The translations under genes and the position numbers were made by a program. The notes under the pieces are model-generated. The model searched no databases. It saw nothing but the letters and a program-made list of their open reading frames with translations, and had not been told where the DNA came from. From positions 473 to 64,472 of the forward strand of contig CAZTXY010000003.1 in assembly GCA_964617815.1 (NCBI GenBank): DNA of 64,000 nucleotides, written 5' to 3'. Below, piece by piece: positions 2,879-63,131 of this stretch. The stretch's first letter is position 1. Each line of letters opens with the position of its first letter. This DNA is from an uncultured Candidatus Saccharibacteria bacterium (GTDB lineage: Bacteria > Patescibacteriota > Doudnabacteria > UBA920).

Positions 2879-2971
2879 CACTGTCATTCTGAGCCCTTCG
2901 ATGCCCACAGGGTAAACTCCGCGAAGGCTGCCTACCTGAAGAGATTCCTCGACAGGCTCGGAATGACAGTG
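2879..2971. repeat. MITE/REP-like palindromic element, copy R1 (TIRs cactgtcattctgagc / gctcggaatgacagtg)
   Basis: 16-bp terminal inverted repeats are read directly from the sequence. Copies of the same family are at 7076, 14046, 37812, 48957, 55497 and 63055. Confidence 0.75.
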
Positions 2972-3023
2972 GGTAAAATATTGCAGAACGATAGTCACAA
3001 AAACAGTCAAACAAAAAATCGGT

Positions 3024-4004
3024 CTAAAGCAGACCGATTTTTTGTTTGACTTCGAGAAGAGTTTGGCTGGCAATGGCTTTGGCTTTTTTGGCTCCATCTG
3101 CCAGAATTTGGGCCAAGGCATCTTTGTCTTTGAGAAGCGCTTTTTTCTTTTCTCGGAATTCTGCGAAGTGTTCTGATATGTCAGTAGCTAGAGTTTCTTT
3201 GAGTTCGCTATATTTTATAGAATTGTCAGCAATTGCATCTTCAAAGTAATTGATCTGTTCCTTAGTTCCAAAATGTCTGAGCAAAAATAACAAATTTTCA
3301 ACTCCAGGTGACTTGGCCCCTTCTGTGGCGGTCACAGCTTTTTTTAGTTTGCGGGAAATTTCCTCAGGACTGTCATCTAACCAGATGGCGTTGTCTATAT
3401 CACCAGTTTTGCTCATTTTCTTTTCTGGATTTTTTAAGCTTTTAATTCGCAAAGGTTTTTGCACAAAAGTTTGTGGTTCAGAAAAAGTTTTGCCAAAGCG
3501 ATTATTAAATTTGCGCGCTACAATTCGGGCGAGTTCGACATGCTGAGCTTGGTCTTCTCCTACTGGAACCCCGTCTGGTTTATAAAGTAAGATATCTGCA
3601 GCCATGAGCGTAGGGTAGGTTAACAGACCAGCGTTTATATTTTCTTTGTGCTGTTTTGCTTTGTCTTTAAACTGCGTCATGCGTTCTAATTCACCAAGAG
3701 GGGTTATGCAGTTAAATATCCAAGCGAGTTCGCTATGTTCAGATAGATGATTTTGCAAAAAAATACTAGAATTTTTTAAATTTAGTCCTGCAGCTAAATA
3801 TTCAGCAACTACTTCTAAAGTGTCTTGTTTTAGTTGTTTTGGTTCGAATGGCGTGGTGATAGCATGAAGGTCCGCCACAAAAAAGAATCCTCGGTAGTCA
3901 GGATTATTGCTTAACTCGATGAATTGTTGTAACGCACCAAGATAATTACCAATATGTAATTTGCCGGTGGCTCGTATACCGGCTAAAAATGTTTTTTGCT
4001 TCAT
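3024..4004 (-). CDS. trpS: Tryptophanyl-tRNA synthetase
   Basis: HIGH motif (GKLHIGNYLGAL) and KMSKS motif (KMSKT) at class-I TrpRS spacing, 326 aa. Confidence 0.9.
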   Translation of the reverse strand: MKQKTFLAGIRATGKLHIGNYLGALQQFIELSNNPDYRGFFFVADLHAITTPFEPKQLKQDTLEVVAEYLAAGLNLKNSSIFLQNHLSEHSELAWIFNCITPLGELERMTQFKDKAKQHKENINAGLLTYPTLMAADILLYKPDGVPVGEDQAQHVELARIVARKFNNRFGKTFSEPQTFVQKPLRIKSLKNPEKKMSKTGDIDNAIWLDDSPEEISRKLKKAVTATEGAKSPGVENLLFLLRHFGTKEQINYFEDAIADNSIKYSELKETLATDISEHFAEFREKKKALLKDKDALAQILADGAKKAKAIASQTLLEVKQKIGLL

Positions 4005-4040
4005 AGTGTGTATAGTATAGCAAATTTTATCTGAATGAGT

Positions 4041-4074
4041 CTAAAAAAGAAGGAGGGCGGCCTTGGGGCCGCCC
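4041..4074 (-). terminator. Intrinsic terminator for the minus-strand GC-rich cassette
   Basis: Stem gggcggcc ttgg ggccgccc, followed on the minus strand by tccttctttttt. Confidence 0.6.
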
Positions 4075-4119
4075 TTGAGGTGGGGATTGCCGTAGCCTTT
4101 TGAGCTAGGGGCTGACGGG

Positions 4120-4425
4120 TTATGAGCTTGCCGTCGGGTTCATCCCACGGTTGTCTACTACTCTGAAAGCCGGACACTCTTGGGCGGTGATCTCCAGACG
4201 GAAACGTCCTTGAGGTGCCCAGATGCTATCTCCAGCTTGGCTGGCGATGTCCATGCGTTCCTGATAGAACTCCTTTTGGGCGGCTTCGATCATGCGGAGT
4301 AAGTCTTGTTCGGAGTTGGCCTTGATGAGTCTGTGGATCAAGATCTGATCATGAGACTCTTCGGTGTCACTCTTTCCGAAAAGGTGAACTGTGATATGCA
4401 GTTCATGTGTGAACAGTTCGGTCAT
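4120..4425 (-). CDS. Hypothetical protein (GC-rich cassette, gene 3 of 3)
   Basis: SD ggagg plus ATG at 4425 (MTELFTHELH...). The composition is higher in GC than the backbone. Confidence 0.45.
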   Translation of the reverse strand: MTELFTHELHITVHLFGKSDTEESHDQILIHRLIKANSEQDLLRMIEAAQKEFYQERMDIASQAGDSIWAPQGRFRLEITAQECPAFRVVDNRGMNPTASS

Positions 4426-4444
4426 CTGTGTCCTCCGTTGGTTG

Positions 4445-4633
4445 TTAGTCGAGAATCCAGACTTCAGCAACGAGCAAGCCGCCACTGATCATCAGTGTCC
4501 ACCACAGCGTATCTTTGTCGACATGGGTGAGCAGTTCGACAATGACAACTGCGGTAGCACAGACTACTGTGATTGCGATCACAGCATTTTTCCCGAACGA
4601 CTGTGGCTCTTGGCCGGTTACCTTATTTGCCAT
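4445..4633 (-). CDS. Small membrane protein, 62 aa (GC-rich cassette, gene 2)
   Basis: SD aggagg, 6 nt, then ATG (MANKVTGQEP...). One or two hydrophobic helices. Confidence 0.4.
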   Translation of the reverse strand: MANKVTGQEPQSFGKNAVIAITVVCATAVVIVELLTHVDKDTLWWTLMISGGLLVAEVWILD

Positions 4634-4655
4634 CACTGGCCTCCTTGCTATTGAA

Positions 4656-4892
4656 CTACTCGGATGGAAGGTGTTTGATAGTGCATTCGAACACAACACC
4701 AAATCCTTCAAATTCCTCTGGGTAGAGGAGTCGCGGGTTAATGCTATCTACCATAGCGTAAATTCTTTGGCTGCGAAGCGAAACTCTCGCTTGAGTGATG
4801 CCAAAGACTTTCTCGTACTGTTCCAGGAACCGAAGTTTCAGTGCCTCGCAAGTTTTGCAAAAGGCTTCTTCGTTCACGGTGGTGTCCTCCAT
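4656..4892 (-). CDS. Hypothetical protein (GC-rich cassette, gene 1)
   Basis: ORF MEDTTVNEEAFCKTCEALK..., co-oriented with and tightly spaced to the next two genes. Confidence 0.4.
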   Translation of the reverse strand: MEDTTVNEEAFCKTCEALKLRFLEQYEKVFGITQARVSLRSQRIYAMVDSINPRLLYPEEFEGFGVVFECTIKHLPSE

Positions 4893-4919
4893 TTGGACCA
4901 GACTAGTTAATTAGTATAA

Positions 4920-5031: not shown

Positions 5032-5053
5032 TCTAGTCACTAGTGGCTAGTTG
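5032..5053. repeat. TAGT-heptad array (tctagtcac tagtggc tagttg)
   Basis: 7-bp periodic TAGTNNC units immediately 3' of the rnj stop codon. Same family as the arrays at 13253, 49231, 50325 and 51098. Confidence 0.5.
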
Positions 5054-7075: not shown

Positions 7076-7118
7076 CACTGTCATCCTTCTCCGCCGGAGG
7101 CGGATCAGGATGACAGTG
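7076..7118. repeat. MITE/REP-like palindromic element, copy R2 (cactgtcatcct...aggatgacagtg)
   Basis: 12-bp TIRs around a ccgccggaggcgg core. It sits at the AT-rich to GC-rich transition. Confidence 0.7.
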
Positions 7119-7475: not shown

Positions 7476-8117
7476 TTAGGCCTGATGAGCCATTCGGTCC
7501 AAGAACTCGCGACCCTTGCCGACGTCGATGTTGATAGGCACGCCACTTGCGCAGAGCGGGCAGTCCGCCTCATCCCAAGCTTCGAGGATGACGTCGAGCA
7601 GTGACGAAAGCCTGGGCACGTCTCCTAACTGCTCTGCAGTCACACCACCTCGGTTGCAGATAGCTCCGAGCCCGATGACCTTGCCACCAATTGCCCTTGT
7701 GGCTTTCACAACCTTGTGTGCCGTTCCGCCGGTGGTCAGAACGTCTTCGACCACGAGGACGTTCTTGTCGGCGACGAGCTTGTCGTAGCCACGCTTGATC
7801 ACGAAGTTGCCTTCGTAATTTTCGGCGTAGACCGCCAGCACTTCTTTCCCTGTGATCTCGCTGAGATGCATGGCCGTCCATTGCGACAGAATGACTCCGC
7901 CGATAGCTGGCCCGATGACCACCTCGACGTGATTGTAGAGGAACTCAGTTGCGATCTTCCGGCAGATCTTCGAAACTTCAAAGATGTGCGGATACACGGC
8001 GTCCTTGTTGACATAGGCATTGCCGTGCTTTCCGCTGGTGTAGACGACGTGGGTGTTTGTGATGACAGCCGAAACCTTTCCGAGGATTTCCAACACGAAC
8101 TCTTCGTTGCTTTTCAT
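7476..8117 (-). CDS. pyrE: Orotate phosphoribosyltransferase-like type I PRTase
   Basis: PRPP-binding motif VLVVEDVLTTGGT. Length 213 aa equals OPRTase. Adjacent to pyrF. GC-rich. Confidence 0.6.
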   Translation of the reverse strand: MKSNEEFVLEILGKVSAVITNTHVVYTSGKHGNAYVNKDAVYPHIFEVSKICRKIATEFLYNHVEVVIGPAIGGVILSQWTAMHLSEITGKEVLAVYAENYEGNFVIKRGYDKLVADKNVLVVEDVLTTGGTAHKVVKATRAIGGKVIGLGAICNRGGVTAEQLGDVPRLSSLLDVILEAWDEADCPLCASGVPINIDVGKGREFLDRMAHQA

Positions 8118-8129
8118 CCGATGATCTCC

Positions 8130-9044
8130 TTATCTGCAGAGGTTGATCTGGTCGCGAAGCTTCATGGTTTCGCGACGTGCCGCTCTAGCGTAGTCATCTT
8201 CCTTGGAAGCGAAGATGATCTTACTGGAGCTGTTGATAATCATGCCGTAGCCGTGGCTGTCAGCTGTGGCCATAACCGTTGCTTCAACATCTCCGCCTTG
8301 GGTACCAATACCCGGCAAGAGAAAGGCCATGTCGCCGACGATCTCACGAACTTCCTTGGCTTGGAGCGGGTAGGTCGCACCAACGACGAGAAGGCAGTTG
8401 CCGTTGGTGTTCCAGTCCCGAGCGACGTTGAACGCGACCCGCTGGTAGAGAGGCATCGAATCCTCACAAAGAAGATTCAGCCAGGTTTTGGCTTTCATGC
8501 CTTTGGGCTTTTCTCGCGGATCGAGCGTCAGCGTGTGCAGATCCTGAAATTCACCTGCGCCTTTGTTGGTTGTCCGGCAAAGCACGATGATGCCCTTGTC
8601 CTTTTGGTCCAAGAACGGTTGCATCGCCTCTTTGCCGAGGTAGGGGTGAACGGTGATGGCGTCAGCTCGGAGCCAGCCAAAACTGGCAGTGACGTAGCAG
8701 TTATTGGTATTGCCGATGTCGGCGCGCTTGGCGTCGAGGATCACCGGCACATGCGGTGCGAAGCGGTTAATGTCGGCAATGGTTCGCCATAGTGCGCTCA
8801 TGCCTTCGTTGCCACTCTCTTCGTAAAACGCCGAATTGAGCTTGTAGGCACAGACGATGTCCTGCGTCGCTTCCACGATTTCGCGGTTGAACGCGACCAT
8901 CGTGTTGGCGATGCCGACTGTACATTCGTGTCCCGGCCTGTAGGCAGACTCCGGAATCTTTCCGAATTCGCTGTCCAGACCCACGCAGACGAAGTTACCA
9001 ACGCTCCACCGCTCTTCGAGCAGTCGCTGGAAATTTCTTCTCAT
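8130..9044 (-). CDS. pyrF: Orotidine-5'-phosphate decarboxylase, type 2
   Basis: Motifs VCVGLD and ILDAKRADIGNT (type-2 ODCase DxKRGDIxxT). The start is moved to MRRNFQ, which has SD aaggagg 7 nt upstream. Confidence 0.7.
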   Translation of the reverse strand: MRRNFQRLLEERWSVGNFVCVGLDSEFGKIPESAYRPGHECTVGIANTMVAFNREIVEATQDIVCAYKLNSAFYEESGNEGMSALWRTIADINRFAPHVPVILDAKRADIGNTNNCYVTASFGWLRADAITVHPYLGKEAMQPFLDQKDKGIIVLCRTTNKGAGEFQDLHTLTLDPREKPKGMKAKTWLNLLCEDSMPLYQRVAFNVARDWNTNGNCLLVVGATYPLQAKEVREIVGDMAFLLPGIGTQGGDVEATVMATADSHGYGMIINSSSKIIFASKEDDYARAARRETMKLRDQINLCR

Positions 9045-9083
9045 GGTTTTGCCTCCTTCTAGGCTGTCAAACAACTTTAAAAC

Positions 9084-9106
9084 CCGCTACTTAGCGGGAT
9101 TGAGTC
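9084..9106 (-). terminator. Intrinsic terminator (cccgcta agta gcggg then ttttaaagtt on the minus strand)
   Basis: It lies downstream of the minus-strand purM-like gene. Confidence 0.5.
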
Positions 9107-9216
9107 TGGTCGTAGTTTAGTAGAAATATAGAAAAAATGCAATAGTAAAATATTTGTAAAAAAAATTGGTGGGCCTGCTGTCTTGCGACAGCAGGCCCAA
9201 GCCTAGTGACACTTGG

Positions 9217-10386
9217 TCACCGGATGTTAAGTGACTCTCCCTTAAACTCGAGATACTTCGGGAGGATGACCACTCTCTTGTCAACGCTCCTTTTGATGTA
9301 TCCAGCCTTGATTGCATCAAAGTTGTAGTCCTGGGCGATCATCATGGCCTTGCTTACATCTGCCTTCGATATGTAGATAGCAAAGCCTGCGCCCATGTTC
9401 AGATTGCCGAAGGCTTCCTCATCGCTGATTGGGCCATGCTTTTGAAGGAACGCGAAGATTGGTTGTTCTTTCGGAAGCTCCTCGATGATGTACCGAAAGT
9501 TACGGTTCGCGCGCATCAGCTTGCGCCACCCGTGGCCGGTGATGTTCACTGCGTAGTGAATATCAACGCCCCACTTCTGGCATTCCTCCATGAACTTCTG
9601 GTAGATGCAGGTTGGAGTCAGAAGCGTTTCGCCGTAGGTACGACCGTCTGAAAGTTCGGTGAGGTAGCCCTTGGGCAAAGCATGCAGGGGGAAGGACTGC
9701 GGCAGGATGAGGTTACTGAATTTACGCCAAAAGCCATCCTTTCTGTCGCCGATTGATCTTGCCAAGGTCAGGCCGTTGGCGTGAATGCCAGAACTCCCTA
9801 GGAGAATTATGACATCACCATGCTGGATTTTATTTTCCGTGATCAGCCGACTCTTTGGTTCAATGATCCCGGTAGCTGAGCCAGAGATGACTGATTTTCC
9901 GGGGATGATAATGTCTTTGAGAGTCGGCGTTTCGCCGCCACCCCAGACACACCCACTGAGCATGCAGGCTTTTTTCCATCCATTGATGAGATCTATACTT
10001 CGCTGTTGGTTGCCGAACCAGCTTGATTCGCCGACGGCCAAGTGCATCATTACAGACACTGGCATTGCACCGAGCGTGATGATGTCGTTGATGATCATCG
10101 CCATAGTGCATTGCGCGACTTGGTCGTAGTACGACTTGCCGGTCAAAGCGCTCATCTGGTCTGCGACGATGTTCTTGGTACCGAGGCCCTCTTCGACGTG
10201 AGCTAGGATTACCTGCGGCATTTCGACGAGATAGGCGCTTTCGCCACGGCTCATCGAGATTTCATAAAAGCCGAAGCGCTCGATGTTCGGAGCTGTTTCC
10301 AAGCCAGCGGCCAATGCTTGCCGTTTGAACGGATCCATGGCGCCGTAGTCAACGCCCGTGCTAGCGTATGTCATGTTCTCTGTCAT
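9217..10386 (-). CDS. AIR synthase-related protein (PurM-like; probably phosphoribosylformylglycinamidine cyclo-ligase)
   Basis: The N-terminal GVDY...VILAHVEEGLGTK resembles the PurM VLxSGTDGVGTK ATP-binding loop. 389 aa. GC-rich. Confidence 0.55.
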   Translation of the reverse strand: MTENMTYASTGVDYGAMDPFKRQALAAGLETAPNIERFGFYEISMSRGESAYLVEMPQVILAHVEEGLGTKNIVADQMSALTGKSYYDQVAQCTMAMIINDIITLGAMPVSVMMHLAVGESSWFGNQQRSIDLINGWKKACMLSGCVWGGGETPTLKDIIIPGKSVISGSATGIIEPKSRLITENKIQHGDVIILLGSSGIHANGLTLARSIGDRKDGFWRKFSNLILPQSFPLHALPKGYLTELSDGRTYGETLLTPTCIYQKFMEECQKWGVDIHYAVNITGHGWRKLMRANRNFRYIIEELPKEQPIFAFLQKHGPISDEEAFGNLNMGAGFAIYISKADVSKAMMIAQDYNFDAIKAGYIKRSVDKRVVILPKYLEFKGESLNIR

Positions 10387-13213: not shown

Positions 13214-13252
13214 TATACTAATTTTATAGTGGTCGTGTCAATAACGACTAGA

Positions 13253-13290
13253 AACTAGTTACTAGTATCTAGTCACTAGTAGAGGCAAGG
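13253..13290. repeat. TAGT-heptad array (aaC TAGTTAC TAGTATC TAGTCAC TAGTAGA) in the divergent secG / RNHCP intergenic region
   Basis: Four or five 7-bp units built on the ACTAGT palindrome. Confidence 0.55.
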
Positions 13291-13304: not shown

Positions 13305-13613
13305 ATGATTCAATCCAAAAAGTTTCAGAGAACTAAAGAAGATTTTAGCTGCACTCATTGTGGACAGGTTGTTTTTGGTACAGGGTACACAAACCATTGT
13401 CCAAAGTGTTTGTGGAGTAAGCATGTAGACATTAACCCAGGTGATAGAGCTAGCGAATGTAGTGGAATGATGACACCAGTTCAAGCTGAGTTTAAAGCCG
13501 GGGAGTGGGCACTGCTTCATCGCTGTGAGGTTTGCGGGTTTGAGAAAAAAAATAAAACAGTGCCTGATGATGATTTAAATGCAATTTTAAAATTAGCAAC
13601 TAAGTTGCTATAG
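13305..13613 (+). CDS. RNHCP-domain zinc-ribbon protein
   Basis: CxxC...YTNHCPKC...CxxC arrangement, 102 aa. Confidence 0.5.
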   Translation: MIQSKKFQRTKEDFSCTHCGQVVFGTGYTNHCPKCLWSKHVDINPGDRASECSGMMTPVQAEFKAGEWALLHRCEVCGFEKKNKTVPDDDLNAILKLATKLL

Positions 13614-15485
13614 ATATTTTTTTATAATTTCAGCTTTGGATTTGCCGACGAGGTCGGTTAGGATTTGAAGTGAGGCTGTGCGAATGTTTGCGACACTGCC
13701 AAGTTTATTTTTGAGCAGTTTTTTTGTTTTGGGGCCAATACCTGCTACTTCATCGAGTGCGGATTTGACTGCTTGCTTACTGCGCAGTGCGCGATGAAAA
13801 GTAATGCCAAAACGGTGAGCTTCGTCGCGCAGGCGTTGGAGAAGTTGAAGCGCCGGTTGGTCGTGGTCAAGGATAATTGGTTGTTTTTTTCCGGGGACAA
13901 AAATTTCTTCAATGCGTTTAGCCAAGCCAATGACCGGAATTTTTAAACCTTTTTCTTTTAAGACTTTGACTGCTACAGAAAGTTGCCCTTTGCCGCCGTC
14001 TATAACTAGAAGATCCGGCGTTGGCCAGGTATCTTTGTTATTAGCACTGTCATTCTGAGGTGCATCCGAAGAATCTCTGTTTTTGTCATTGAGATCCTTC
14101 ACTCCGTTCAGGATGACAGTAGGTAGGGGGGTACTTCTCGCCAATCGGCGAGTCAGCATCTCTTCCATCATGGCAAAGTCGTCTGGCGTGGACTTACCGG
14201 TAATTTTGAATTTGCGGTATTCGGACTTTGCCGGCAGGCCATCAATACAAACGACCATACTCCCGACAGGGTTAGTGCCTTGGATGTTGCTTATGTCGTA
14301 GCCTTCTATTCTTTTGGGAATTTTTGTTAAGCCAAGCACAGTTTGCAGTTGCTTTAGGGCAGAGTTTATGACATCGCGATTGTCTGCTTGGCTCCGTTGC
14401 CATTTTTGTAAATATTCTTGCGCATTGGTTTGGCCAAGTTTAACTAGGTCGCGCTTTTTCCCCCGCGTAGCTATCTCTATAGAGATTTTTGTTTTGCTTC
14501 TGGTTCGTAGCAGGAGGGCTATTAGAGCTTCGTTGGTCGTGCCACTTTGCAAAATAATGAGTTTGGGCAAATTGGAAGTGTCGGCGTAATAATTTTCTGC
14601 AAATTTTTGCAAGACGTCGCTATCTTGCGTATTTGATTTTATATTATAGATAAAACTTTCTTTGTCGATAAGTTTGCCCGCGCGAATTTTAAATAAATTT
14701 ACGCTACCATTAATGCCTTCTCGGAAAACTGAGATAATATCCCAAGAAACTTTTTTTGGCATAATGGCGATTTGGCGTTCTTGCAAAATATCTAAGCTGC
14801 TGACTTGGTCACGCAGGCGGGCTGCGCGCTCAAACTGTTTGCGACGACTCGCGCTTTGCATTTGGGTTTTAAGTTGGCTTGTAATTTTAGCAGTTTGCCC
14901 GGAAAGAAACAGAACAATGTTGTTAATTTGTTCTGCGTATTCAGTAAAAGTTATGTTTCCTACGCACACACCGGGACAGCGGTGAAGGTGATAGTAAAAG
15001 CAAGGGCGCTTGCCGACTTGGTTATTGCTACAAAATGGAAAAATTTTTCGAACTAGATCGAGCGTAGTTTTTATTTTTTTAGTCGAGGAGTATGGTCCGA
15101 AATATTTTATGCTCCCGCTATTGTTTTCAACTTTGCGTGCATAGCTAATTTGCGGAATTTGCGTGGAGTAGTCAATGGTAATAAAAGCATAATTTTTATC
15201 ATCTCGTAGTTTAATGTTGTATGGGGGAGTGTATTGTTTAATTAACGTGTTTTCTAAAAATAAACTTTCCAGTTCCGTCTGGACTACAACATAGTCAAGA
15301 TCTTGGGCTTCGCTAATCAAAAAGGGCAGTTGAACGCGCGTGTCCTGACCGCTAAAATATTGAGCTACTCGCGATTTTAAGTTTTTAGCTTTGCCCACGT
15401 ATAAAACATCACCGCTAGCACCTTTGAATAAGTACACTCCTGGCTTGGCAGGCAAGTCTTTAATTTTTTCTTTAAGAGAGTTCAT
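13608..15485 (-). CDS. uvrC: Excinuclease ABC subunit C
   Basis: N-terminal GIY-YIG domain (KPGVYLFKGASGDVLYVGKAKNLKSRV), UvrBC-interaction region, C-terminal RNase-H-like and HhH domains. It contains an in-frame 25-codon insertion encoded by a palindromic repeat element. Confidence 0.9.
   Translation of the reverse strand: MNSLKEKIKDLPAKPGVYLFKGASGDVLYVGKAKNLKSRVAQYFSGQDTRVQLPFLISEAQDLDYVVVQTELESLFLENTLIKQYTPPYNIKLRDDKNYAFITIDYSTQIPQISYARKVENNSGSIKYFGPYSSTKKIKTTLDLVRKIFPFCSNNQVGKRPCFYYHLHRCPGVCVGNITFTEYAEQINNIVLFLSGQTAKITSQLKTQMQSASRRKQFERAARLRDQVSSLDILQERQIAIMPKKVSWDIISVFREGINGSVNLFKIRAGKLIDKESFIYNIKSNTQDSDVLQKFAENYYADTSNLPKLIILQSGTTNEALIALLLRTRSKTKISIEIATRGKKRDLVKLGQTNAQEYLQKWQRSQADNRDVINSALKQLQTVLGLTKIPKRIEGYDISNIQGTNPVGSMVVCIDGLPAKSEYRKFKITGKSTPDDFAMMEEMLTRRLARSTPLPTVILNGVKDLNDKNRDSSDAPQNDSANNKDTWPTPDLLVIDGGKGQLSVAVKVLKEKGLKIPVIGLAKRIEEIFVPGKKQPIILDHDQPALQLLQRLRDEAHRFGITFHRALRSKQAVKSALDEVAGIGPKTKKLLKNKLGSVANIRTASLQILTDLVGKSKAEIIKKYL
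14046..14120. repeat. MITE/REP-like palindromic element, copy R3, inserted in frame inside uvrC (encodes ...NGVKDLNDKNRDSSDAPQNDSANNKD...)
   Basis: TIRs cactgtcattctgagg / ttcaggatgacagt. 75 bp = 25 codons with no stop. The coordinates map to UvrC residues about 456-481, just before the conserved LLVIDGGKGQ block. Confidence 0.7.
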
Positions 15486-17124: not shown

Positions 17125-20001
17125 ATGCCTACAAAGAAGATAAAAACTACTGACAATGTTAGTAACGCGATTATTATTCGCGGGGCGCGCCAACACAATT
17201 TAAAAAATATTGACGTTGACTTACCACGTAACAAATTGATTGTTATGACCGGTCTTTCCGGTAGTGGTAAGTCTTCTTTAGCTTTTGATACGATTTATGC
17301 AGAGGGTCAGCGTCGTTACGTGGAGTCGCTTTCAGCTTACGCGCGCCAGTTTATTGGTTTGATGGACAAACCAGATGTCGACAAAATTGAAGGACTTAGC
17401 CCTGCCATTTCTATCGATCAAAAATCAGCGAGTCACAACCCGCGTTCAACAGTTGGAACTGTTACTGAAATTTATGACTACTTGCGTTTACTATACGCTC
17501 GTGTCGGTGTGCCCCATTGTCCAGTTTGTGGAAAGAAAATTTCTGGCCAAACCTTGCAAGCCATGACAGACCAGTTGATGAAGCTTCCAGCAGGAACTAA
17601 GCTGGTTTTGCTCGCACCGTTTATACGAGACCAAAAAGGTGAACATAAAGCAGTGTTTGAACAGATTAAGCGTGCTGGTTTTGCGCGTGTGCGAACTGAT
17701 GGCATGCTCATGGACTTGAATGAAGCTCAGGGCTTGAATTTAGATAAGCAAAAAAAACATAGCATAGACGTTGTTATTGACCGCATTACAGTTAGCCCAG
17801 ATGACCGTGGGAGAATTTCTGAAAGTTTAGAAAAAGCTCTTGACCTTGGTGACCAAATTGCAATTGCACTTGTTGGCGAAGAAGGAAAAGCCAAAGAACA
17901 ATTATTATCTCAAAAATTTGCTTGTCCCGACGGGCACATGTCACTTTCTCAGCTGGATCCCCGTGATTTTAGTTTTAACAGTCCGCATGGGGCTTGTCCG
18001 GAATGTAAAGGTTTGGGAACTAAGCTTAATATTGAACCAGAATTAGTAATTCCTAATCAGCGTTTGACACTCGCTGAAGGGGCAGTGCGCCCTTGGAGCA
18101 AAACTACATCAAGACTGACTTGGTATAGCCGAATTATGCAAGCTGTGGCAGAAGAGTACGGCTTCTCTATTAATACTCCGATTAAAGATTTACCAAAAAA
18201 ATATTTGGACGTTATTTTATATGGGACGGGCGACAAAAAAATTCATGTGAAAGGGGAGTCTTCTACGCGCGAGGCGACTTATGAATTTAACACAGCTTTT
18301 GAAGGAGTTATCCCAAATTTAGAACGTCGCTATGGCGAAACAGACTCAGAATACATGCGCGGCGAGATTGAAAATTATATGCGCATTCGAGTTTGCCCAA
18401 CTTGCAACGGCAAGCGTCTTAAGCCTGAAGTCTTGGCAGTTACAGTTGGCGACCGGGGAATTGTCGATGTGTCACAAATGAGCATTGAAGATGCTGATAA
18501 GTTTTTTACAGATCTACCAAAAAAATTGTCGAGCAAGGATATGCAAATTGCCAAATTAATTTTTAAAGAAATTAGCGCAAGGTTAAACTTTTTGCTAAAT
18601 GTTGGTTTGTCGTACTTGTCGCTTGACCGCAGTGCGGACACTCTCTCAGGCGGTGAGGCTCAGCGTATTCGTTTAGCCACTCAAATTGGCTCTGGCCTAA
18701 CTGGTGTGCTCTATATTTTAGACGAGCCTTCAATCGGATTACACCAACGAGACAATGGCAGGCTCTTGCGTACTCTTAAAGAACTACGAGATTTAGGGAA
18801 TACAGTTATTGTTGTTGAACACGACGAAGAAACTATCCGCGAAGCTGACTGGGTTGTTGACATTGGCCCAGGAGCGGGTAAGCATGGCGGGGAGTTAGTT
18901 GCTTTTGGCACGCCTGAGGACGTGGCAAAGAATAAAAATTCATTAACTGGACAGTACTTGTCTGGCACAGAGAGCATAGAAGTACCAAAACGCAGACGTA
19001 GTGGTAATGGCAAAAAAATCTCTGTCATTGGTGCTAGCGAGTTTAATCTTAAAGATGTTAATGTCGACATTCCTCTTGGAAAGTTTGTATGTTTGACCGG
19101 CGTGTCCGGTAGTGGCAAATCCACTTTGCTCAACGACATTGTGGCCAAGGCCTTATCAAAATATTTTTACAACAGCAAAGATGAACCTGGTAAGCACAAG
19201 AAACTTTTAGGAATTGATTCAGTTGATAAAATTATCAACATTGATCAGTCGCCAATTGGTAGAACGCCACGCTCTAACCCAGCGACGTACACGGGCGTGT
19301 TTACATTTATTCGCGATTTATTTGCCGACACTAAAGAAGCTAAAATGAAAGGTTACAAGAGTGGCCGATTTAGTTTTAACGTTCAGGGTGGACGTTGTGA
19401 GCGCTGTAGTGGTGATGGTGTGATTAAAGTTGAGATGAATTTTTTGCCGGATGTTTACATTACTTGTGAGGAATGTAACGGGAAGCGTTACAACCGTGAA
19501 GCTTTGGAAATTCACTACAATGGAAAAACTATTGCAGATGTTTTAGAAATGACTGTCGATGAATCGAAAATGTTTTTTGCTAATCTGCCACCAATTAAGC
19601 GAAAGCTGGATACACTTTCAGAAGTTGGTTTGGGTTATATGCACCTTGGCCAAAATGCCACCACACTTTCGGGTGGTGAAGCACAACGTATTAAGTTGGC
19701 AACCGAGTTGTCACGCGCTTCCACAGGGCGTACTCTCTATATTTTAGATGAGCCAACTACGGGACTTCATTTTGCTGACACTAAGCGTTTGATAATTGTG
19801 CTAAACAAGTTGGTAGAAAAAGGTAATACGGTTGTGGTGATTGAGCATAACTTAGATATGATTAAAACCGCAGACTGGATTATTGACCTTGGGCCGGAAG
19901 GCGGCAATAAAGGCGGCGAAATTGTGGCTGTAGGAACACCTGAAGAAGTGGCGAAAGTCAAAGGCAGTTATACGGGTCAGTATTTGAAAAAGATTTTGTA
20001 G
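17125..20001 (+). CDS. uvrA: Excinuclease ABC subunit A
   Basis: Two ABC ATPase modules ([14 protein letters not shown]... and [14 protein letters not shown]...) with zinc-finger insertions. 958 aa. SD aggag. Confidence 0.95.
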
Positions 20002-20013
20002 TTCTAATAATAA

Positions 20014-20078
20014 AAGCCCCGAAATTTCGGGGCTTTAAAAAAAAGGGGCACCCTTTTGCAAAAGGGTGTCCCTTTTAG
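20014..20078 (+). terminator. Tandem intrinsic terminators after uvrA
   Basis: Hairpins gccccgaaatttcggggc and ggggcaccc ttttgcaaaa gggtgtccc, the second followed by tttt. Confidence 0.65.
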
Positions 20079-20080
20079 TA

Positions 20081-20109
20081 TTGACAAAACAGCTAAATTG
20101 TTGTATTAT
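20081..20109 (+). promoter_or_regulatory. Sigma-70-like promoter (TTGACA, 17 nt, TATTAT) for the GC-rich island gene at 20180
   Basis: Consensus -35 and near-consensus -10 with 17-nt spacing. Confidence 0.5.
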
Positions 20110-20179
20110 TTTAAGTTGCATTGACCGGCCAAGTTTTTTAAACTTGGTATTCTGATGTTTCGAATTTGGAGGATTACAC

Positions 20180-20533: not shown

Positions 20534-20541
20534 AGATGTGA

Positions 20542-20590
20542 AGCGCGAGTGGAGAGCTGCAGAAATGCAGTCTCTCCACTCGCGCTCTTT
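20542..20590 (+). terminator. Intrinsic terminator (agcgcgagtggagag...ctctccactcgcgct then cttt)
   Basis: 15-bp inverted repeat. Confidence 0.55.
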
Positions 20591-37810: not shown

Positions 37811-37811
37811 C

Positions 37812-48944: not shown

Positions 48945-48956
48945 AGGTTTTATACT

Positions 48957-49016
48957 GTGTCATTCCAGCGAAGGCTGGAATCCAGTCTGGATCCCAAATC
49001 AAGTTTGGGATGACAA
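48957..49016. repeat. MITE/REP-like palindromic element, copy R5 (gtgtcattccagcgaaggctggaatccagtctggatcccaaatcaagtttgggatgacaa)
   Basis: Two internal hairpins (ttccagc/gctggaa and tcccaaa/tttggga). It is the near-exact reverse complement of copy R6 at 55497. The ORF-track entry 48775..49002 simply translates this element. Confidence 0.75.
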
Positions 49017-49230: not shown

Positions 49231-49268
49231 GCTAGTTCCTAGTAACTAGTATCTAGTGACTAGTCTTA
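49231..49268. repeat. TAGT-heptad array filling the whole spacer between the TlpA-like stop and the XRE start (gcTAGTTCC TAGTAAC TAGTATC TAGTGAC TAGTCTT)
   Basis: Five 7-bp units. Confidence 0.6.
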
Positions 49269-50324: not shown

Positions 50325-50367
50325 TTTAGTGACTAGCCACTAGTAACTAGCTTCTAGTGTTACTGCA
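50325..50367. repeat. TAGT-heptad array (TAGTGAC TAGCCAC TAGTAAC TAGCTTC TAGTGTT)
   Basis: Five units between the ccdA stop and the TlpA-like start. Confidence 0.6.
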
Positions 50368-51097: not shown

Positions 51098-51135
51098 TTT
51101 GCTAGTAACTAGTCACTAGTGGCTGGTCACTAATT
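51098..51135. repeat. TAGT-heptad array (gcTAGTAAC TAGTCAC TAGTGGC TGGTCAC TAATT)
   Basis: Between the thioredoxin stop and the ccdA start. Confidence 0.55.
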
Positions 51136-51813: not shown

Positions 51814-53397
51814 ATGAAAGTCAAACGAGCGCTGATCAGCGTTTCGGACAAGAGGTACATCGACAAACTCGGCTGGGCTCTTACCAAGCTCGGCGTGGAG
51901 ATTATTTCTACGGGTGGAACCGCCAAGGCGCTTTTGCAAGCGGGAGTGCCCATCATTGACGCCAGTGAGTTCACTGGCTGGCCCGAGATGTTCGAAGGTC
52001 GCCTCAAGACCTTGCACCCTCTCATCCACGGGGGAATTCTGTTCCGCCGGGGCAACGAAGAAGACCAGCGCCAGGCCGCCGAACATGGCGTCGTGGGGAT
52101 CGACCTCGTCGTGGTCAATCTTTATCCTTTTGCCGCGACCGTGGCAAAGGAGGGCGTGACCTTCGAAGACGCGGTCGAGAATATCGACATCGGCGGGCCG
52201 ACCATGGTGCGGGCGGCTGGCAAGAACTACGAGGATGTTGCTGTGGTCGTCGATTCCGGCGACTACGAAGCACTCATCGAGGAACTGGAGTTCAGTGGTG
52301 GCAACCTTTCGCTTATGACTCGCTTCAGTCTGATGAGCAAGGCCTTCGCCCATACGGCGGCCTACGACAGCGCGATCGCTGACTTCATTGCCAACCGGGC
52401 GACGTTTAACCCCGGAACCGAGAAGGTCGAGGTGCTTGATGCTGAAGCGATGCCGGCGCGGGTAACGCTGCAGTTGAGGCGCAAGGACACTCTTCGCTAC
52501 GGTGAGAACCCGCATCAGAAGTCTGCGCTGTACACTACGGCGCAGTCTGACGGTGGCGTTGCAGCGGCTGTTCAGATCCAGGGCAAGGGTCTTTCTATGA
52601 CCAACTATCTGGACATGGACGCGGCCTGGAAGATCGTAGGGGAGCTCGCAGGGGAGCTCGTCTCCTTTCAAGTCCCTTGTGCAATCGTCAAGCACGCAAC
52701 CCCGTGCGGCGTTGCCATCGGAGCAACCCAAGTTGATGCCTACATTCGGGCTTTTGCCTGCGATCCAAAGTCGGCTTTCGGCGGCGTCATCGCGTTCGAT
52801 GATGTGGTTGACGGTGATGCGGCCAGAGCAGTTCTGAGCCATTTCGTTGAGGTCGTGATCGCAACTGATTACACCGACGAGGCTCTGGAGGAGTTTCAGC
52901 GAAAGCCCAACGTTCGTGTGATGCGGGCGCCAAACGCGGTAGCTGAACCTTTCGAGCTTCGTAGTATCAGTGGCGGCCTGCTGTTTCAGCAGCCTGACAC
53001 TGACGCCATTCACGCTCTCTCTGTCGTCACGGAGCGTCAACCCACGGAATTCGAGGAGAACGATCTGTGGCTCGCCAACATGTTGGTCAAGTACGTCAAG
53101 AGCAACGGCATTGTCTACGTTCGCGACCAGCAGATGGTGGCGGTGTGTGGTGGACAGACGAGTCGAGTGGATGCGGTGCGCATGGCTGGCGAGAAGGCTG
53201 TGCTTCCGCTTGCTGGTTCTGTGTTGGCCTCAGACGCCTTTTTCCCGTTTCGCGACAATGTCGATGAGGCGGCAAAGGCAGGCGTTACGGCCATCATTCA
53301 GCCGGGAGGATCGAATCGCGATCAGGAGGTCATCGATACAGCCAACGAGAATGACATGGCCATGATCTTCACTGGCACACGCCACTTTCGGCACTGA
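51814..53397 (+). CDS. purH: Bifunctional AICAR transformylase / IMP cyclohydrolase
   Basis: N-terminal MGS-like IMPCH domain (KRALISVSDK...GVEIISTGGTAKAL...LKTLHP) plus the AICARFT domain. 527 aa. SD aaggag. Strongly GC-rich. Confidence 0.88.
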   Translation: MKVKRALISVSDKRYIDKLGWALTKLGVEIISTGGTAKALLQAGVPIIDASEFTGWPEMFEGRLKTLHPLIHGGILFRRGNEEDQRQAAEHGVVGIDLVVVNLYPFAATVAKEGVTFEDAVENIDIGGPTMVRAAGKNYEDVAVVVDSGDYEALIEELEFSGGNLSLMTRFSLMSKAFAHTAAYDSAIADFIANRATFNPGTEKVEVLDAEAMPARVTLQLRRKDTLRYGENPHQKSALYTTAQSDGGVAAAVQIQGKGLSMTNYLDMDAAWKIVGELAGELVSFQVPCAIVKHATPCGVAIGATQVDAYIRAFACDPKSAFGGVIAFDDVVDGDAARAVLSHFVEVVIATDYTDEALEEFQRKPNVRVMRAPNAVAEPFELRSISGGLLFQQPDTDAIHALSVVTERQPTEFEENDLWLANMLVKYVKSNGIVYVRDQQMVAVCGGQTSRVDAVRMAGEKAVLPLAGSVLASDAFFPFRDNVDEAAKAGVTAIIQPGGSNRDQEVIDTANENDMAMIFTGTRHFRH

Positions 53398-53423
53398 GCA
53401 GTTACAAACGGGGGAGAGTTTTT

Positions 53424-53486
53424 GCAGAGCATCTGGCTCTGCGTTTGGGCGGGTCGCTACACCAGCGACCCGCCCTCATCTTTTTT
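53424..53486 (+). terminator. Tandem terminator hairpins after purH (gcagagc atctg gctctgc; gggcgggtcgc tacaccag cgacccgccc then tcatctttttt)
   Basis: Read directly from the sequence. Confidence 0.7.
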
Positions 53487-53522
53487 ATGTTATAATTTAC
53501 TTAATAAAACTAATCTAAAAAA

Positions 53523-54086
53523 ATGAAACAAAAAGAAATTTTACTTTGGACGCTAGCGGTTTCTGCTTTGATCTTATCAGTCATCGCCACTTTTGGATCT
53601 CGTTTGCAAGGACTTTCTTCAGAAGCTGCTTCTAGACCACAAAATATGACCATGTCACAAAATCAGGGGACATTAAGAGTGACCACTGGTGGAATAGTCA
53701 CAAATGGTGATGAAAATTCACCTACAGCTCCAGGATGCGATTATAGTGAGGTATCGATATCTATGACTTATAGTGAGGATACTCAAACAAGAAATGATAA
53801 TATTGAAAGAGCATTTTTTGAACTTCAAGCACGCTGTGGGCAGACTAGTAGTTGTTCTGGTTTGGCCAATACTATTGATGAATTAAATGAGCAAATGTCA
53901 GGTCAGAATACTATATCCGAAGAGAGCCGTCAGGCGGGGCAAACATGGTTGAATGATATGACAGCAGCTTTTAGACAATGGTGCGGTGGTCATAATAGTG
54001 GCGCAAATAGTGATGGAGGTGATCCCGAAGCTTGTAACCGTGGAGGTGGTACAACATGTTTAGAACCCGGAGCGGTATTGAATTAA
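53523..54086 (+). CDS. Secreted Cys-containing hypothetical protein
   Basis: Signal peptide MKQKEILLWTLAVSALILSVIATFGS. Eight Cys. Confidence 0.45.
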   Translation: MKQKEILLWTLAVSALILSVIATFGSRLQGLSSEAASRPQNMTMSQNQGTLRVTTGGIVTNGDENSPTAPGCDYSEVSISMTYSEDTQTRNDNIERAFFELQARCGQTSSCSGLANTIDELNEQMSGQNTISEESRQAGQTWLNDMTAAFRQWCGGHNSGANSDGGDPEACNRGGGTTCLEPGAVLN

Positions 54087-55493: not shown

Positions 55494-55496
55494 AGT

Positions 55497-55557
55497 TGTC
55501 ATCCCAAACTTGATTTGGGATCCAGTCTGGATTCCAGCTTTCGCTGGAATGACACAT
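55497..55557. repeat. MITE/REP-like palindromic element, copy R6, between grpE and dnaK
   Basis: ttgtcatcccaaacttgatttgggatccagtctggattccagctttcgctggaatgacaca is the reverse complement of R5 with two substitutions. Confidence 0.75.
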
Positions 55558-55574
55558 ATTTGAAAGGAACTATT

Positions 55575-57476
55575 ATGTCTAAAATTATAGGAATTGACTT
55601 AGGAACAAGTAATAGCGCAGCAAGTGTGATGGAAGCTGGTAAGCCAGTCATTATCCCTGCTGCTGAAGGTGCAAGTTTAGGTGGCAAGGCTTTTCCATCT
55701 TACGTGGCTTTTACCAAAGAAGGTGAGCTTCTTGTTGGCGAGCCTGCGCGCAGACAGACAGTCACTAACCCAGAAGGCACAATTTTTGAAGCGAAGCGCA
55801 AGATGGGTACAAAATTTAAGTATACTGTTAATGGTAAAGACTATGCTCCAGAACAAATCAGTGCTTTTATTTTGCAAAAAATTAAGAAAGACGCGGAAAG
55901 CTATCTTGGCGATAAAGTTGAGAAAGCCGTAATTACTGTACCGGCTTACTTCGATGATGCTCAGCGCCAAGCCACAAAACATGCTGGAGAGATTGCGGGC
56001 TTGGAAGTTGTGCGTGTGATTAACGAGCCAACTGCGGCCGCTTTCGCTTATGGTATCGACAAAACTGGTGCTAAGGATCAGAAAATTTTAGTGTTCGATC
56101 TTGGTGGCGGTACGCTTGACGTGACTATCATGGATTTTGGTGAAGTCGACGGCCAAGCTACTTTTGAGGTGCTCTCTACTAGTGGAGATACCGCACTTGG
56201 TGGTAAAGATATGGACGCTAGCTTAATTGATCATATTGTAAAAACTTTCAAAGATGAAAGTGGTGTTGATTTAAGTAGTGATAAAATGGCAATGAATCGT
56301 GTTCGCGAAACAGCGGAAAAAGCTAAAATTGAGTTGTCTACAACTTTAGAAACTGAATTGAACTTACCTTTCATTACGGCAGATAGCTCCGGTCCAAAAC
56401 ATTTGCAAATGAAGTTGACTCGCGCAAAATTGGAAGACTTGGTCAAACCAATTGTCGAGCGTATGCGTACGCCAGTACAGCAAGCTTTATCTGATGCAAA
56501 ACTAACACCGCAACAAATTGAAAAAATTATTATGGTTGGTGGTCCAACTCGCATGCCTATAGTCACTAAGTTTGTTGAAGACTACGTTGGTAAGCAAATT
56601 GAGCGCGGTGTGGATCCAATGGAGGCTGTGGCTAAAGGTGCTGCTATTCAAGCTGGAGTTCTTTCTGGTGACGTTGCTGGTAAAGAAATTTTATTGCTCG
56701 ACGTGACGCCTTTGACCTTAGGCTTAGAGACTTTAGGTGGCGTGCGCACTCCAATTATTGACCGTAATACTACAGTGCCAACTTCAAAGAGCCAAGTTTT
56801 TTCTACAGCCGCTGACAATCAAACTTCAGTAGAGATTCATGTCCTCCAAGGGGAGCGCGAATTTGCTAACGACAACAAAGACTTGGGACGTTTTATTCTC
56901 GATGGTCTTCCTCCAGCGCCTCGCGGGATTCCCCAAGTTGAAGTCACGTTTGATATAGACGCCAGTGGGATTTTAACAGTTAAAGCAAAAGATAAAGCTA
57001 GCGGTAAAGAACAGCATATTACTATTCAAGGTTCAGCTAGTTTGAATAAAGAGGAAGTTGAGAGAATGAAAAAAGAAGCTGAAAGCCATGCTGAAGAAGA
57101 CAGAAAGCGTCGCGAAACCGTGGATATGAGAAACCAAGCCGACACACTTTTGGCTGTCTCAGAAAAGACCCTAAAAGATGCTGGTGACAAAGCTAAGGCA
57201 GAAGACAAAGCCGAAGTGGAAAGCAAAGTAGCAAGTTTAAAAGAAGTGAAAGATAAAGACGATGTAGACGCTATTCGTAAAGCTGTGGACGAATTATCCG
57301 CTGCTATTCAAAAAGTTGGCGCGGCTATGTACGAATCTTCTGCTGAAGCGACAGCGAACAAGGCAACAGAAACAACTGGAGATGCAGCTGGTGCAGACAA
57401 AGGACCTGTGGACGCAGAATTTAAAGAAGTTAAAGAAGAAAGTTCAGAACAAACACCTAAGGATGAAGTTAAATAA
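55575..57476 (+). CDS. dnaK: Molecular chaperone DnaK (Hsp70)
   Basis: [33 protein letters not shown] and others. The start is moved to MSKIIG, which has SD aaagga upstream. The longer ORF-track start merely translates the repeat element. Confidence 0.95.
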
Positions 57477-58179: not shown

Positions 58180-58220
58180 TCAGTAGTCCTAAGTACTAAG
58201 TACTTAGTACTCAGTACTAC
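58180..58220. repeat. AGTACT-heptad array (cctAAGTACT AAGTACT TAGTACT CAGTACT ac) upstream of dnaJ
   Basis: Four 7-bp units built on the AGTACT palindrome. Confidence 0.6.
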
Positions 58221-61675: not shown

Positions 61676-61678
61676 AAA

Positions 61679-61710
61679 TAGTACTTGGTACTGAGTACTT
61701 AGTACTTAGG
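61679..61710. repeat. AGTACT-heptad array (tAGTACTT GGTACTG AGTACTT AGTACTT agg), left flank of the four-helix-bundle gene
   Basis: Four units. Confidence 0.6.
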
Positions 61711-62061
61711 AACTGCATTCTTGTTAGCAAGGCTCCATAGCATTTTTTGAATAGAATTTAATCGTAAGAGTATCTGATTGATTGAAATATTTGGATACTC
61801 TTTTTGTATAATTAGTAGTTGAGTTTCAAGCTCATATGCTGACCCTAAGGAAATATTTAAAAATCTAATTAATTCAGGCTTGGTGTGTCTTCCAAATCCT
61901 TCTGATATATTCGAAGGTATGGATATTGCGGCTCTTAGTATCTGGGAAATTAAAATAAACTGCTCAGAGCTAGGTAATTGCTTAGCTATTTTATACATGT
62001 CAGAGGTTAATTGCATCGATTGTTGCCAAACAATCAAATCCTTGTGGTTGCTAATTGCCAT
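61699..62061 (-). CDS. Four-helix-bundle protein (TIGR02436 family, the type found in 23S rRNA intervening sequences)
   Basis: Signature blocks DLIVWQQSMQL, ISIPSNISEGFGR and GSAYELETQL. 120 aa. Confidence 0.75.
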   Translation of the reverse strand: MAISNHKDLIVWQQSMQLTSDMYKIAKQLPSSEQFILISQILRAAISIPSNISEGFGRHTKPELIRFLNISLGSAYELETQLLIIQKEYPNISINQILLRLNSIQKMLWSLANKNAVPKY

Positions 62062-62069
62062 ATGCGTTT

Positions 62070-62103
62070 TTCTCAGTACCCAGTACTAAGTACTAAGTAC
62101 TCC
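62070..62103. repeat. AGTACT-heptad array (tCAGTACC CAGTACT AAGTACT AAGTACT cc), right flank of the four-helix-bundle gene
   Basis: Four units. Confidence 0.6.
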
Positions 62104-62145
62104 TTTTTTATTATGGCAAAGTGCACTTTGCCATAATAAAAAAGG
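62104..62145. terminator. Perfect 40-bp palindrome (ttttttattatggcaaagtgcactttgccataataaaaaa), a bidirectional terminator-like element
   Basis: Reverse-complement symmetry was checked base by base. A/T runs lie on both sides. Confidence 0.65.
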
Positions 62146-62148
62146 TCA

Positions 62149-62847
62149 TTAAACCTTTTGGGTGATGCCATCACTATCTTGTGATTGAAATTTATAGCCT
62201 CTGGCAGGTATGGTGTGAATGAGTTTTTGTTTTGGACGTTTGCCTAGCTTGCGTCTTAAATTTAAAATGTGTGTTTCGATGGTGTTAGAAAACATATCAG
62301 CGTGAATGTCCCAAACGTGCTCCATTATCATTCCGCGGCTTAGTACCATGCCTTGATTTTTCATGAGGTACTCAAGAAGCTCAAACTCTTTACGTGTGAG
62401 ATAGATTTCCTTGTCGCCTCGCTTGACTATATGTTTATGAATGTCTAAGTAGAGGTCTCCGGCATTTAGTACTGAACTTTCAATTTCTCTGGGGCGCCGA
62501 AGGATGGCCCGAAGTCTCGCTAGGAGCTCTTCAAACAAAATTGGCTTATGCATGTAGTCATCTGCCCCACTATTTAAGTGCTCGACTTTATTCTGAATAT
62601 CTGGATGGTGGGACAGAATTAGTATTGGTGCATGCCTTTTTCTTTGCCTGAGCTCTAGGCATATCTCTCGACCTGATTTTTGCGGTAAATCGCTGGCAAT
62701 AATGAGTGCATCGTAGTCATTGGTGCGGGCTAAGAAAGACCCACGTTCCCCGTCCGGGCTCGTGTCAACAGTAAAGCACTCTTTAGTAAAACTATTTTTT
62801 AAAAACTCTCGTAGCTCGTGCTCACTCTCAATAATGAGGATTCGCAT
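62149..62847 (-). CDS. OmpR-family response regulator (REC + winged-helix DNA-binding domain), atypical receiver
   Basis: C-terminal trans_reg_C (LTRKEFELLEYLMKNQGMVLSRGMIMEHVWD...GYKF). The N-terminal receiver reads IIESEHE in place of the DD pair. Confidence 0.7.
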   Translation of the reverse strand: MRILIIESEHELREFLKNSFTKECFTVDTSPDGERGSFLARTNDYDALIIASDLPQKSGREICLELRQRKRHAPILILSHHPDIQNKVEHLNSGADDYMHKPILFEELLARLRAILRRPREIESSVLNAGDLYLDIHKHIVKRGDKEIYLTRKEFELLEYLMKNQGMVLSRGMIMEHVWDIHADMFSNTIETHILNLRRKLGKRPKQKLIHTIPARGYKFQSQDSDGITQKV

Positions 62848-63054
62848 ATAGCTGGATTAATAATAAAAAATAAAAAATCAAGGTAGATAAGCCTGATTTT
62901 TAAGATTTTTGTATTTATTTTTCCCCTAGCGCCTCCAATATAGCACACCCTGAAAACTTTGCAAGTGGCACTAAATTTTTTTAAAAAAGTCTTTATCTTT
63001 TCTTTATCTACTTTGTGCTAAACTTACTTCCCCCCTAATTTTAAAAGGCTTTTT

Positions 63055-63131
63055 GTGTCATTCCAGAAGCCACGAGTCATCGAGGGCTATGTGGAATCCA
63101 TGGTTCTGGATCCCGGATCAAGTCCGGGATG
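63055..63131. repeat. MITE/REP-like palindromic element, copy R7 (gtgtcattccagaagc...ggatcccggatcaagtccgggatgacaag)
   Basis: It shares the gtgtcattccag 5' end and the gggatgacaa 3' end with R5 and R6. It contains the hairpin cccggatcaagtccggg. Confidence 0.7.

Follow-up and report, generated by a model that had tools for sequence, protein, structure and literature searches.

Small palindromic repeats bearing the tag CGTC or TGTC (or CCTC) were described by Di Nocera, De Gregorio and Rocco (BMC Genomics 14:522, 2013) as CGTC-tagged repetitive extragenic palindromic (REP) sequences. Each unit is based upon a stem of 8-9 bp starting with AT, a loop of 4-5 nt and a CCA tail, and the units occur mostly as tag-outward (HH) dimers between unidirectional or convergent open reading frames (ORFs), with no transposase. 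In that classification CGTC-1 is the dRS3 repeat of Neisseria and the Rickettsia palindromic element (RPE) RPE-6 of R. conorii, while CGTC-4 is RPE-4; in-frame copies are found in uvrA, uvrB, dnaE and other repair genes, where dimers encode 20-30 aa. The Neisseria repeat NTS, CGTCATTCCCGCGMAVGCGGGAATCYRG, was generalised by Chenal et al. (Nat Commun 16:2388, 2025) as the Ssn-related motif (SRM), with the search sequence HGTCWYN(0-2)YYVSBRHN(0-5)WNVSBRGN(0-2)RNCYNB. It is bound by SsnA, a 94-aa single-domain GIY-YIG nuclease that cuts a few nucleotides upstream, acts on single-stranded DNA (ssDNA) only and on one strand only, and does not bind RNA. Binding and cleavage depend critically on GTC and on the C that follows the palindrome; the motif often lies on the flanks of ssnA genes, and 2% of NTS are within genes (Chenal et al. 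2025). Here we analyse seven small palindromic elements, R1 to R7, in a 64-kb stretch of contig CAZTXY010000003.1 (hereafter the window) from an uncultured member of the Patescibacteria (candidate phyla radiation). Judged by their sequence, they are members of the superfamily that comprises the CGTC-tagged REPs, dRS3/NTS, RPE-4/6 and the Ssn-related motifs, and thus of a family already described and not specific to the host genome. With a probability of about three in four, we interpret them as tag-outward dimers of CGTC/TGTC-tagged REP units of the dRS3/NTS/SRM superfamily, carried as Ssn-type passengers at the level of ssDNA.

R1 and R3 to R7 each comprise two inverted modules on opposite strands, with (T/C)GTC tags facing outward and 3-20 nt between the units. 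The modules share a common plan, in which the (T/C)GTC tag precedes a hairpin with A-T, T-A as its first stem pairs, and a tail that starts with C comes last. GTCAT, the hairpin and AT-C are present in all 14 modules, as are GTC directly 5′ and C directly 3′ of the palindrome; the tag is TGTC in 13 and CGTC in one (the left module of R4). The elements fall into two types. In type B (R5 to R7) the tail is CCA(G), and five of the six modules have 8-bp stems with loops of GAAG/GAAA or CTTGA; in the sixth, the plus-strand module of R7, the stem is 6 bp and the loop is expanded. Modules of type A (R1 to R4) have five Watson-Crick base pairs, a tandem G·A (G·A/A·G), and two base pairs with a 3-nt loop, followed by a CTC tail. 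Typing by the tail alone (CC- versus CT-) is fuzzy, and the stem architecture is the better discriminator.

The seven copies constitute a genuine repeat family, far beyond chance. Two octamers that form element termini are over-represented in the window, with seven occurrences of GGATGACA (1.36 expected) and eight of GAATGACA (2.06 expected). A composite pattern drawn from the shared features, TGTCATYC-N(8-30)-GRATCY-N(20-50)-YRGAATGACA, matches five of the seven copies with none expected. These results bear out the original prediction, which recognised at least seven REP-like copies in two subtypes from the sequence alone; all seven were found at the sites noted, with ends shifted by a few bases. 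A scan of the window for additional convincing copies found none, and the density is about one dimer per 9 kb. R5 and R6 are indeed reverse complements over 61 nt with two mismatches (97%), both at unpaired positions. R4 likewise shares the R2 core, its left half matching R2 over 35 nt at 97%, but the 26-bp nested hairpin that it was said to carry proves to be a second module, which adjoins the first on the opposite strand. The limits of R4 to R7 are corrected in the following list; the true end of R7 lies 4 nt beyond that given previously, and the terminus of R3 reads ...GACAGTA, not GTG.

R1, 2879-2971, minus strand: type-A doublet of 93 nt, between the end of trpS (3024) and the start of a 99-aa ORF (2797).
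R1 modules: a clear one at 2944-2967 (minus strand), actGTCATTCCGAGCCTGTCGAGGAATctc; its plus-strand partner, from 2883, is degenerate.
R2, 7076-7118, minus strand: single 43-nt palindromic unit with a TGTCAT tag on both strands; hairpin at 7080-7114; neighbours are a phosphoribosyltransferase gene and RNase J.
R3, 14046-14120, minus strand: type-A doublet of 75 nt; modules at 14094-14117 (minus) and 14049-14074 (plus).
uvrC, 13608-15485, minus strand: host gene of R3; intact ORF of 625 aa with all UvrC domains present.
R4, 37810-37879, plus strand: doublet whose first base is the last base of the stop codon of a 1425-aa glycosyltransferase ORF.
R4 modules: left at 37813-37844 (plus), with tag CGTC and the same hairpin as R2; right at 37852-37875 (minus).
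R5, 48956-49016, minus strand: type-B doublet of 61 nt; module at 48959-48981 (plus), TGTCATTCCAGCGAAGGCTGGAATCCAG, matching the SRM.
R5 second module: 48991-49014 (minus), with a CTTGA loop.
R6, 55496-55556, plus strand: type-B doublet in the grpE-dnaK spacer; modules at 55498-55521 (plus) and 55531-55553 (minus, matching the SRM).
R7, 63055-63135, minus strand: type-B doublet of 81 nt; module at 63110-63133 (minus), matching the SRM.
R7 second module: 63057-63097 (plus), with the expanded loop and 6-bp stem.

The same composite pattern was scanned across phyla, using one genome per species, and gave at least 120 loci. This search for further copies came out in favour of a real family, with related copies across most bacterial phyla. 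Among the matches listed are Bacteroidota, Acidobacteriota, Chloroflexota, Clostridia, many Proteobacteria, Rickettsiales, Coxiellaceae, Planctomycetota, Omnitrophota, four Patescibacteria and others, and type A predominates among them. The type-A consensus across phyla is TGTC-ATYCY-GA-GCGAAGC-GA-RGRAT-CTC, containing a GCGAAGC-like mini-hairpin. Viral contigs, scanned in full, yielded only 82 loci. Tandem arrays of 3-7 dimers with a period of about 70-90 nt are found in four of the viral contigs (L252, L272, L284 and L271) and at one genome locus (L014); there are none in the window.

The scan pattern imposed no stem constraint, yet the stems of the matches are complementary. In gapless cross-phylum alignments three stem pairs each exhibit 13-15 double (compensatory) changes, and the observed score is reached in none of 500 shuffles. 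Within the window the SRM-matching stem of R7 carries compensatory changes relative to R5 and R6, from AA/TT to GG/CC. Local complementarity is seen in both modules of 102 of 115 non-redundant dimers. In 63 of the 115 the arms do not complement each other, and 50 of these 63 retain a stem in each module, so that two local hairpins are the structure conserved. These counts lead us to reject a single long hairpin per element as the conserved structure, although it is the RNAfold minimum for R1 to R3.

The local nature of the hairpins bears on the proposal that the elements are classical MITEs (miniature transposable elements with inverted repeats), deletion derivatives of insertion sequences moved by a DDE transposase via terminal inverted repeats. 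The inverted ends CACTGTCAT...ATGACAGTG (TG...CA), the size of 43-93 nt and the presence of multiple dispersed copies are all MITE-like. However, the apparent terminal inverted repeats are two hairpin modules, and the interiors keep covariation at the level of the module, not complementarity of arm with arm. Moreover, a check for target-site duplications revealed no direct repeats flanking any of the seven copies, no transposase (including Y1) is present among the genes of the window, and the sole gene found between the same ends elsewhere is the GIY-YIG nuclease discussed below. A MITE origin, as originally suggested, is very improbable.

The type-B elements provide the link to the nuclease. 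The GIY-YIG and YhbQ-like queries used were consensus sequences, of which one resembling cd10448 matched real proteins at up to 85% identity and retrieved more than 8000 of them, including proteins from Paceibacterota and Liptonbacteria. In contigs of the latter two groups the gene, ssn (single-domain GIY-YIG, cd10448-type), lies between ruvB and ruvC, or between two ribonucleotide reductase genes, with TGTCAT-hairpin-ATCCAG on its upstream side and CTGGAT-hairpin-ATGACA on its downstream side. A tagged unit is present within 150 nt on both sides in 45 of the 73 metagenomic ssn loci with enough flank. R5 to R7 have the same outer ends and inner junctions as the units that flank ssn, with a few bases between, and so resemble small versions of the SRM-ssn-SRM unit that lack the gene. 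No gene other than that of a 95-aa GIY-YIG nuclease was found between such ends. A search with the published SRM sequence finds three modules in the window (48958-48985 on the plus strand, and 55527-55554 and 63106-63134 on the minus strand), compared with 0.2 in shuffled sequences; the other 11 are unmatched. No ssn/GIY-YIG or YhbQ-like gene was found in the window, the 120 repeat-bearing loci (0.9 Mb) or the 82 viral loci (0.8 Mb), which is uninformative because about 100 repeats per gene are expected.

By analogy with the Neisseria system (Chenal et al. 2025), the elements might function as follows. The dimer places one forward unit on each DNA strand. When ssDNA is exposed during uptake, replication or repair, an Ssn nuclease would bind each hairpin and make its cut a few nucleotides 5′ of the GTC. 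Such nicking, acting with recombination among copies, could spread and homogenise the repeats, and may also restrict incoming ssDNA. The copies in the window would then be passengers, six of them lodged in spacers between co-directional genes and one in a loop of UvrC.

The genomic setting of the copies invites a different explanation, that they act mainly as RNA, being transcribed within operons to give structures that terminate, attenuate or stabilise mRNA. All six intergenic copies are located in short spacers between co-directional genes in operon-like strings, for example hrcA-grpE-[R6]-dnaK, which makes it probable that they are transcribed. All seven are oriented alike with respect to the flanking genes and their transcription (a post hoc observation, n = 7), as RNA each folds better than its shuffles (z -3.3 to -8.7), and many REPs have been argued to act as RNA (Di Nocera et al. 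2013). Against this, there is no T-run after any of the seven and none is flagged as terminator-like, although clear terminator-like hairpins are present elsewhere in the window, and one copy (R3) is coding. The conserved GTC tag, the C tail and the local hairpins on both strands are features for the recognition of ssDNA, by a nuclease that in the case of SsnA does not bind RNA, and an RNA function has no need of the tagged unit on the antisense strand. At the gathering threshold Rfam matched tRNA only, with no RNA family for the elements. A role mainly as RNA is consequently considered unlikely, including the terminators or attenuators of the original prediction. Nor do the elements sit at operon boundaries as it proposed, since the six intergenic copies are within co-directional strings and R3 is inside uvrC; a location between an XRE gene and a membrane gene was not confirmed.

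The coding copy, R3, is inserted in frame in uvrC. Its 75 nt correspond to 25 codons, encoding TVILNGVKDLNDKNRDSSDAPQNDS (UvrC residues 456-480) within the RNase H-like endonuclease domain, and both the ORF and the domains remain intact. In an AlphaFold model of this UvrC (mean predicted local distance difference test, pLDDT, of 82) the sole long stretch below 50 is residues 453-483, which form a coil between a helix (436-449) and a strand (492-496). The insert is thus predicted to be a disordered surface loop that is tolerated by the protein. No NCBIfam model matched the peptide. The best UvrC relatives that carry a name are from Doudnabacteria or the 'Patescibacteria group'.

In most of 120 UvrC homologues the insert site is a short linker, …RRLARVNPENEKDKWPTPDLLVIDGGKGQ…, while the site holds at least 14 residues in 29 of 121 sequences. 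At least nine of the 29 contain peptides (VIPSEEGIQ…, RHPE…, …QNDN) of the kind that tagged units yield when translated in various frames, and a different repeat-derived peptide is present in about six. The 25-aa insert is shared by the window and a relative with 83% identity, and a 20-aa version is present in a relative with 64% identity. In another relative (L001; 80% identical) an in-frame array of the heptamer AGTACTN, encoding STKYSVLSTQ, is located exactly at the R3 site. R3 shares 98.7 and 95.1% identity with its counterparts in two relatives (L002 and L003) whose uvrC genes are 79 and 65% identical, and in the closest relative the copy has lost the sense-strand GTC (GTC to ATC). A module of 26 nt is identical in an unrelated metagenome contig (L203). 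Such near-identity between unrelated organisms shows that high identity reflects constraint, and the recent mobility that had been read into the likeness of R5 and R6 does not follow. For the uvrC element, the pattern of identities indicates either strong constraint at the nucleotide level or repeated re-insertion.

Two further features of the UvrC sequences were observed. A third peptide of repeat origin, PPLEGExEGVxTSPNPSLKGG, occupies the same loop in five of them (P0011, P0024, P0048, P0064 and P0108), with a second site after residue 122, which points to coding hairpin repeats of yet another family in the candidate phyla radiation. In addition, 18 of the 120 homologues have an extra N-terminal segment of 14-114 aa (P0004-P0006, P0009, P0013, P0014 and others); most of these extensions are about 45-115 aa with the common motif …TIYIVKREGKTVFVGRLKQIRRRF…, and the UvrC of the window is without one.

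A number of observations weigh against the interpretation of the elements as Ssn-type passengers. The common orientation of the seven copies is not predicted by a role confined to ssDNA, with the proviso that it was noted post hoc with n = 7. There is no ssn or small GIY-YIG gene in the window or in 22 kb of close relatives. The enzymology is taken from the work on Neisseria, and from it we infer the cleavage and mobility of the window copies. The type-A modules (R1 to R4) fit least well. They fail the SRM motif, their tail is CTC instead of CCA, they have only five Watson-Crick pairs ahead of the tandem G·A mismatches, and isolated type-A modules are not predicted to be stable as ssDNA hairpins. 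Furthermore, 300 kb of ssn loci contain 190 type-B modules compared with three of type A, none of which flanks ssn. It is conceivable, but we would put it forward only tentatively, that the type-A module is the recognition hairpin of a distinct, uncharacterised ssDNA-acting enzyme, and that its dimers are still inserting repeatedly and in frame into the UvrC loop across the candidate phyla radiation. Repeated insertion into the loop would explain element identities of 95-99% in the presence of uvrC identities of 65-79%. A search for pairs of type-A modules enclosing an ORF, as in a possible autonomous element, gave incidental host genes only, and literature searches with type-A DNA strings and translated peptides, and for such repeats in Patescibacteria, found no paper.

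The window holds common housekeeping genes and genes of the cell surface, including trpS, RNase J, uvrC, uvrA, hrcA-grpE-dnaK-dnaJ, purA, purH, pyrD, pyrF, glycosyltransferases and a sortase. The longest dnaK ORF begins with a TTG that lies within R6 (55515-55564); the true start is likely to be the ATG near position 55565, which follows an AAAGGAA ribosome-binding site, and automatic annotation could wrongly extend DnaK through the element. The outward ATGACA of the elements (GTGACA at R2) scores as -35-like and is paired with a -10-like hexamer at 55549-55576 (plus strand), 48963-48934 (minus) and 7078-7051 (minus). The elements could in this way create outward promoters, the matches to the consensus being weak. 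The G+C content is 50-53% at 8001-10000, 20001-24000 and 52001-54000, compared with 38-45% elsewhere. These stretches hold genes of nucleotide biosynthesis (pyrF with an AIR-synthase-like gene, pyrD with an amidohydrolase, and purH), which are unusual for the host group and may have been acquired horizontally.

Heptamer repeats are also present in the window. Tandem arrays of 3-5 units of ACTAGTN, with the palindrome ACTAGT, are found at 5032-5051, 13247-13280, 49238-49264, 50332-50351 and 51101-51120, all in short intergenic spacers adjoining gene ends. The sequence ACTAGTNACTAGT (with one mismatch or fewer) occurs 13 times compared with 0.12 expected. The arrays recall the STRR heptamer repeats of cyanobacteria. 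AGTACTN forms a second family, at 58185-58218, 61680-61706 and 62075-62101 (10 occurrences, 0.08 expected). The last two arrays are inverted and bound both sides of a gene at 61699-62061 (minus strand) for a 23S rRNA intervening-sequence/four-helix-bundle protein (PF05635, TIGR02436), in the manner of a small inserted cassette. A PF05635 gene is also located near ssn in a Liptonbacteria locus (L126).

The present analysis extends to the Patescibacteria a repeat family of Proteobacteria, Bacteroidetes and a few other phyla, and the density of dimers is a notable load for the tiny genomes of this group. It joins two literatures that use differing names, that of the CGTC-tagged REPs, RPE-4/6 and dRS3, and that of NTS/SRM and Ssn, and it allows the short dimers to be pictured concretely as SRM-ssn-SRM units without the gene. 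Inserts that recur in frame in the UvrC loop are a natural experiment on the entry of selfish hairpins into proteins. On the practical side, such repeats break assemblies and yield spurious small ORFs and odd protein insertions in uncultivated bacteria.

The Rickettsia palindromic elements offer one comparison. They were reportedly described within protein-coding genes by Ogata and colleagues in 2000, and R3 resembles them in being palindromic, in frame within a housekeeping gene, in leaving the ORF intact and in encoding a surface or disordered segment. RPE-1 is 100-150 bp in length and belongs to a different sequence family. R3 falls in no named RPE family (there being no NCBIfam match), and the connection with RPE-4/6 is only via the CGTC superfamily. 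A second comparison is with the REPIN/RAYT systems of Pseudomonas and Escherichia coli, where the repeated unit is also an inverted doublet of small hairpins, which presumably arose from sequences beside a single-copy gene acting on ssDNA hairpins. Movement of the window elements by a RAYT, a REP-associated tyrosine transposase of IS200/IS605 type, would account for the REPIN-like, intergenic dimers. The REPIN tag is GTAG and its enzyme a Y1 HUH transposase, whereas here the tag is (T/C)GTC and the associated gene that of a GIY-YIG nuclease. The window holds no Y1 gene, and in no species did Di Nocera et al. (2013) observe CGTC units on the flanks of a RAYT gene; this explanation has very little probability.

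The closest correspondence is with the CGTC-tagged REPs and with NTS/SRM. Patescibacteria are not among the five phyla of Di Nocera et al. (2013), nor among those listed by Chenal et al. (2025). Type A departs from the CGTC-tagged REPs in its five base pairs, tandem G·A, GCGAAGC-like mini-hairpin and CTC tail, and its translated forms are absent from the published list of intragenic units (Di Nocera et al. 2013). Type B fits closely, with the TGTC tag, an 8-bp stem started by AT and a loop of 4 or 5 nt (both in five of its six modules) and the CCA tail. Six of the seven window elements are tag-outward dimers, the six intergenic copies lie between co-directional ORFs, one dimer is in frame in an excision-repair gene, and there is no transposase. 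The differences from NTS/SRM are that the window has compact dimers without an ssn gene, compared with the clustered arrays of Neisseria, that the SRM leaves 11 of 14 modules unmatched, and that one copy in seven is coding. The window has TGTCATTCCAGCGAARGCTGGAATCCAG where Neisseria has the NTS given above, both have GTCAT, a hairpin and ATCYRG, with GTC 5′ and C 3′ of the palindrome, and the SRM-ssn-SRM arrangement was recovered here in contigs that include those of Patescibacteria.

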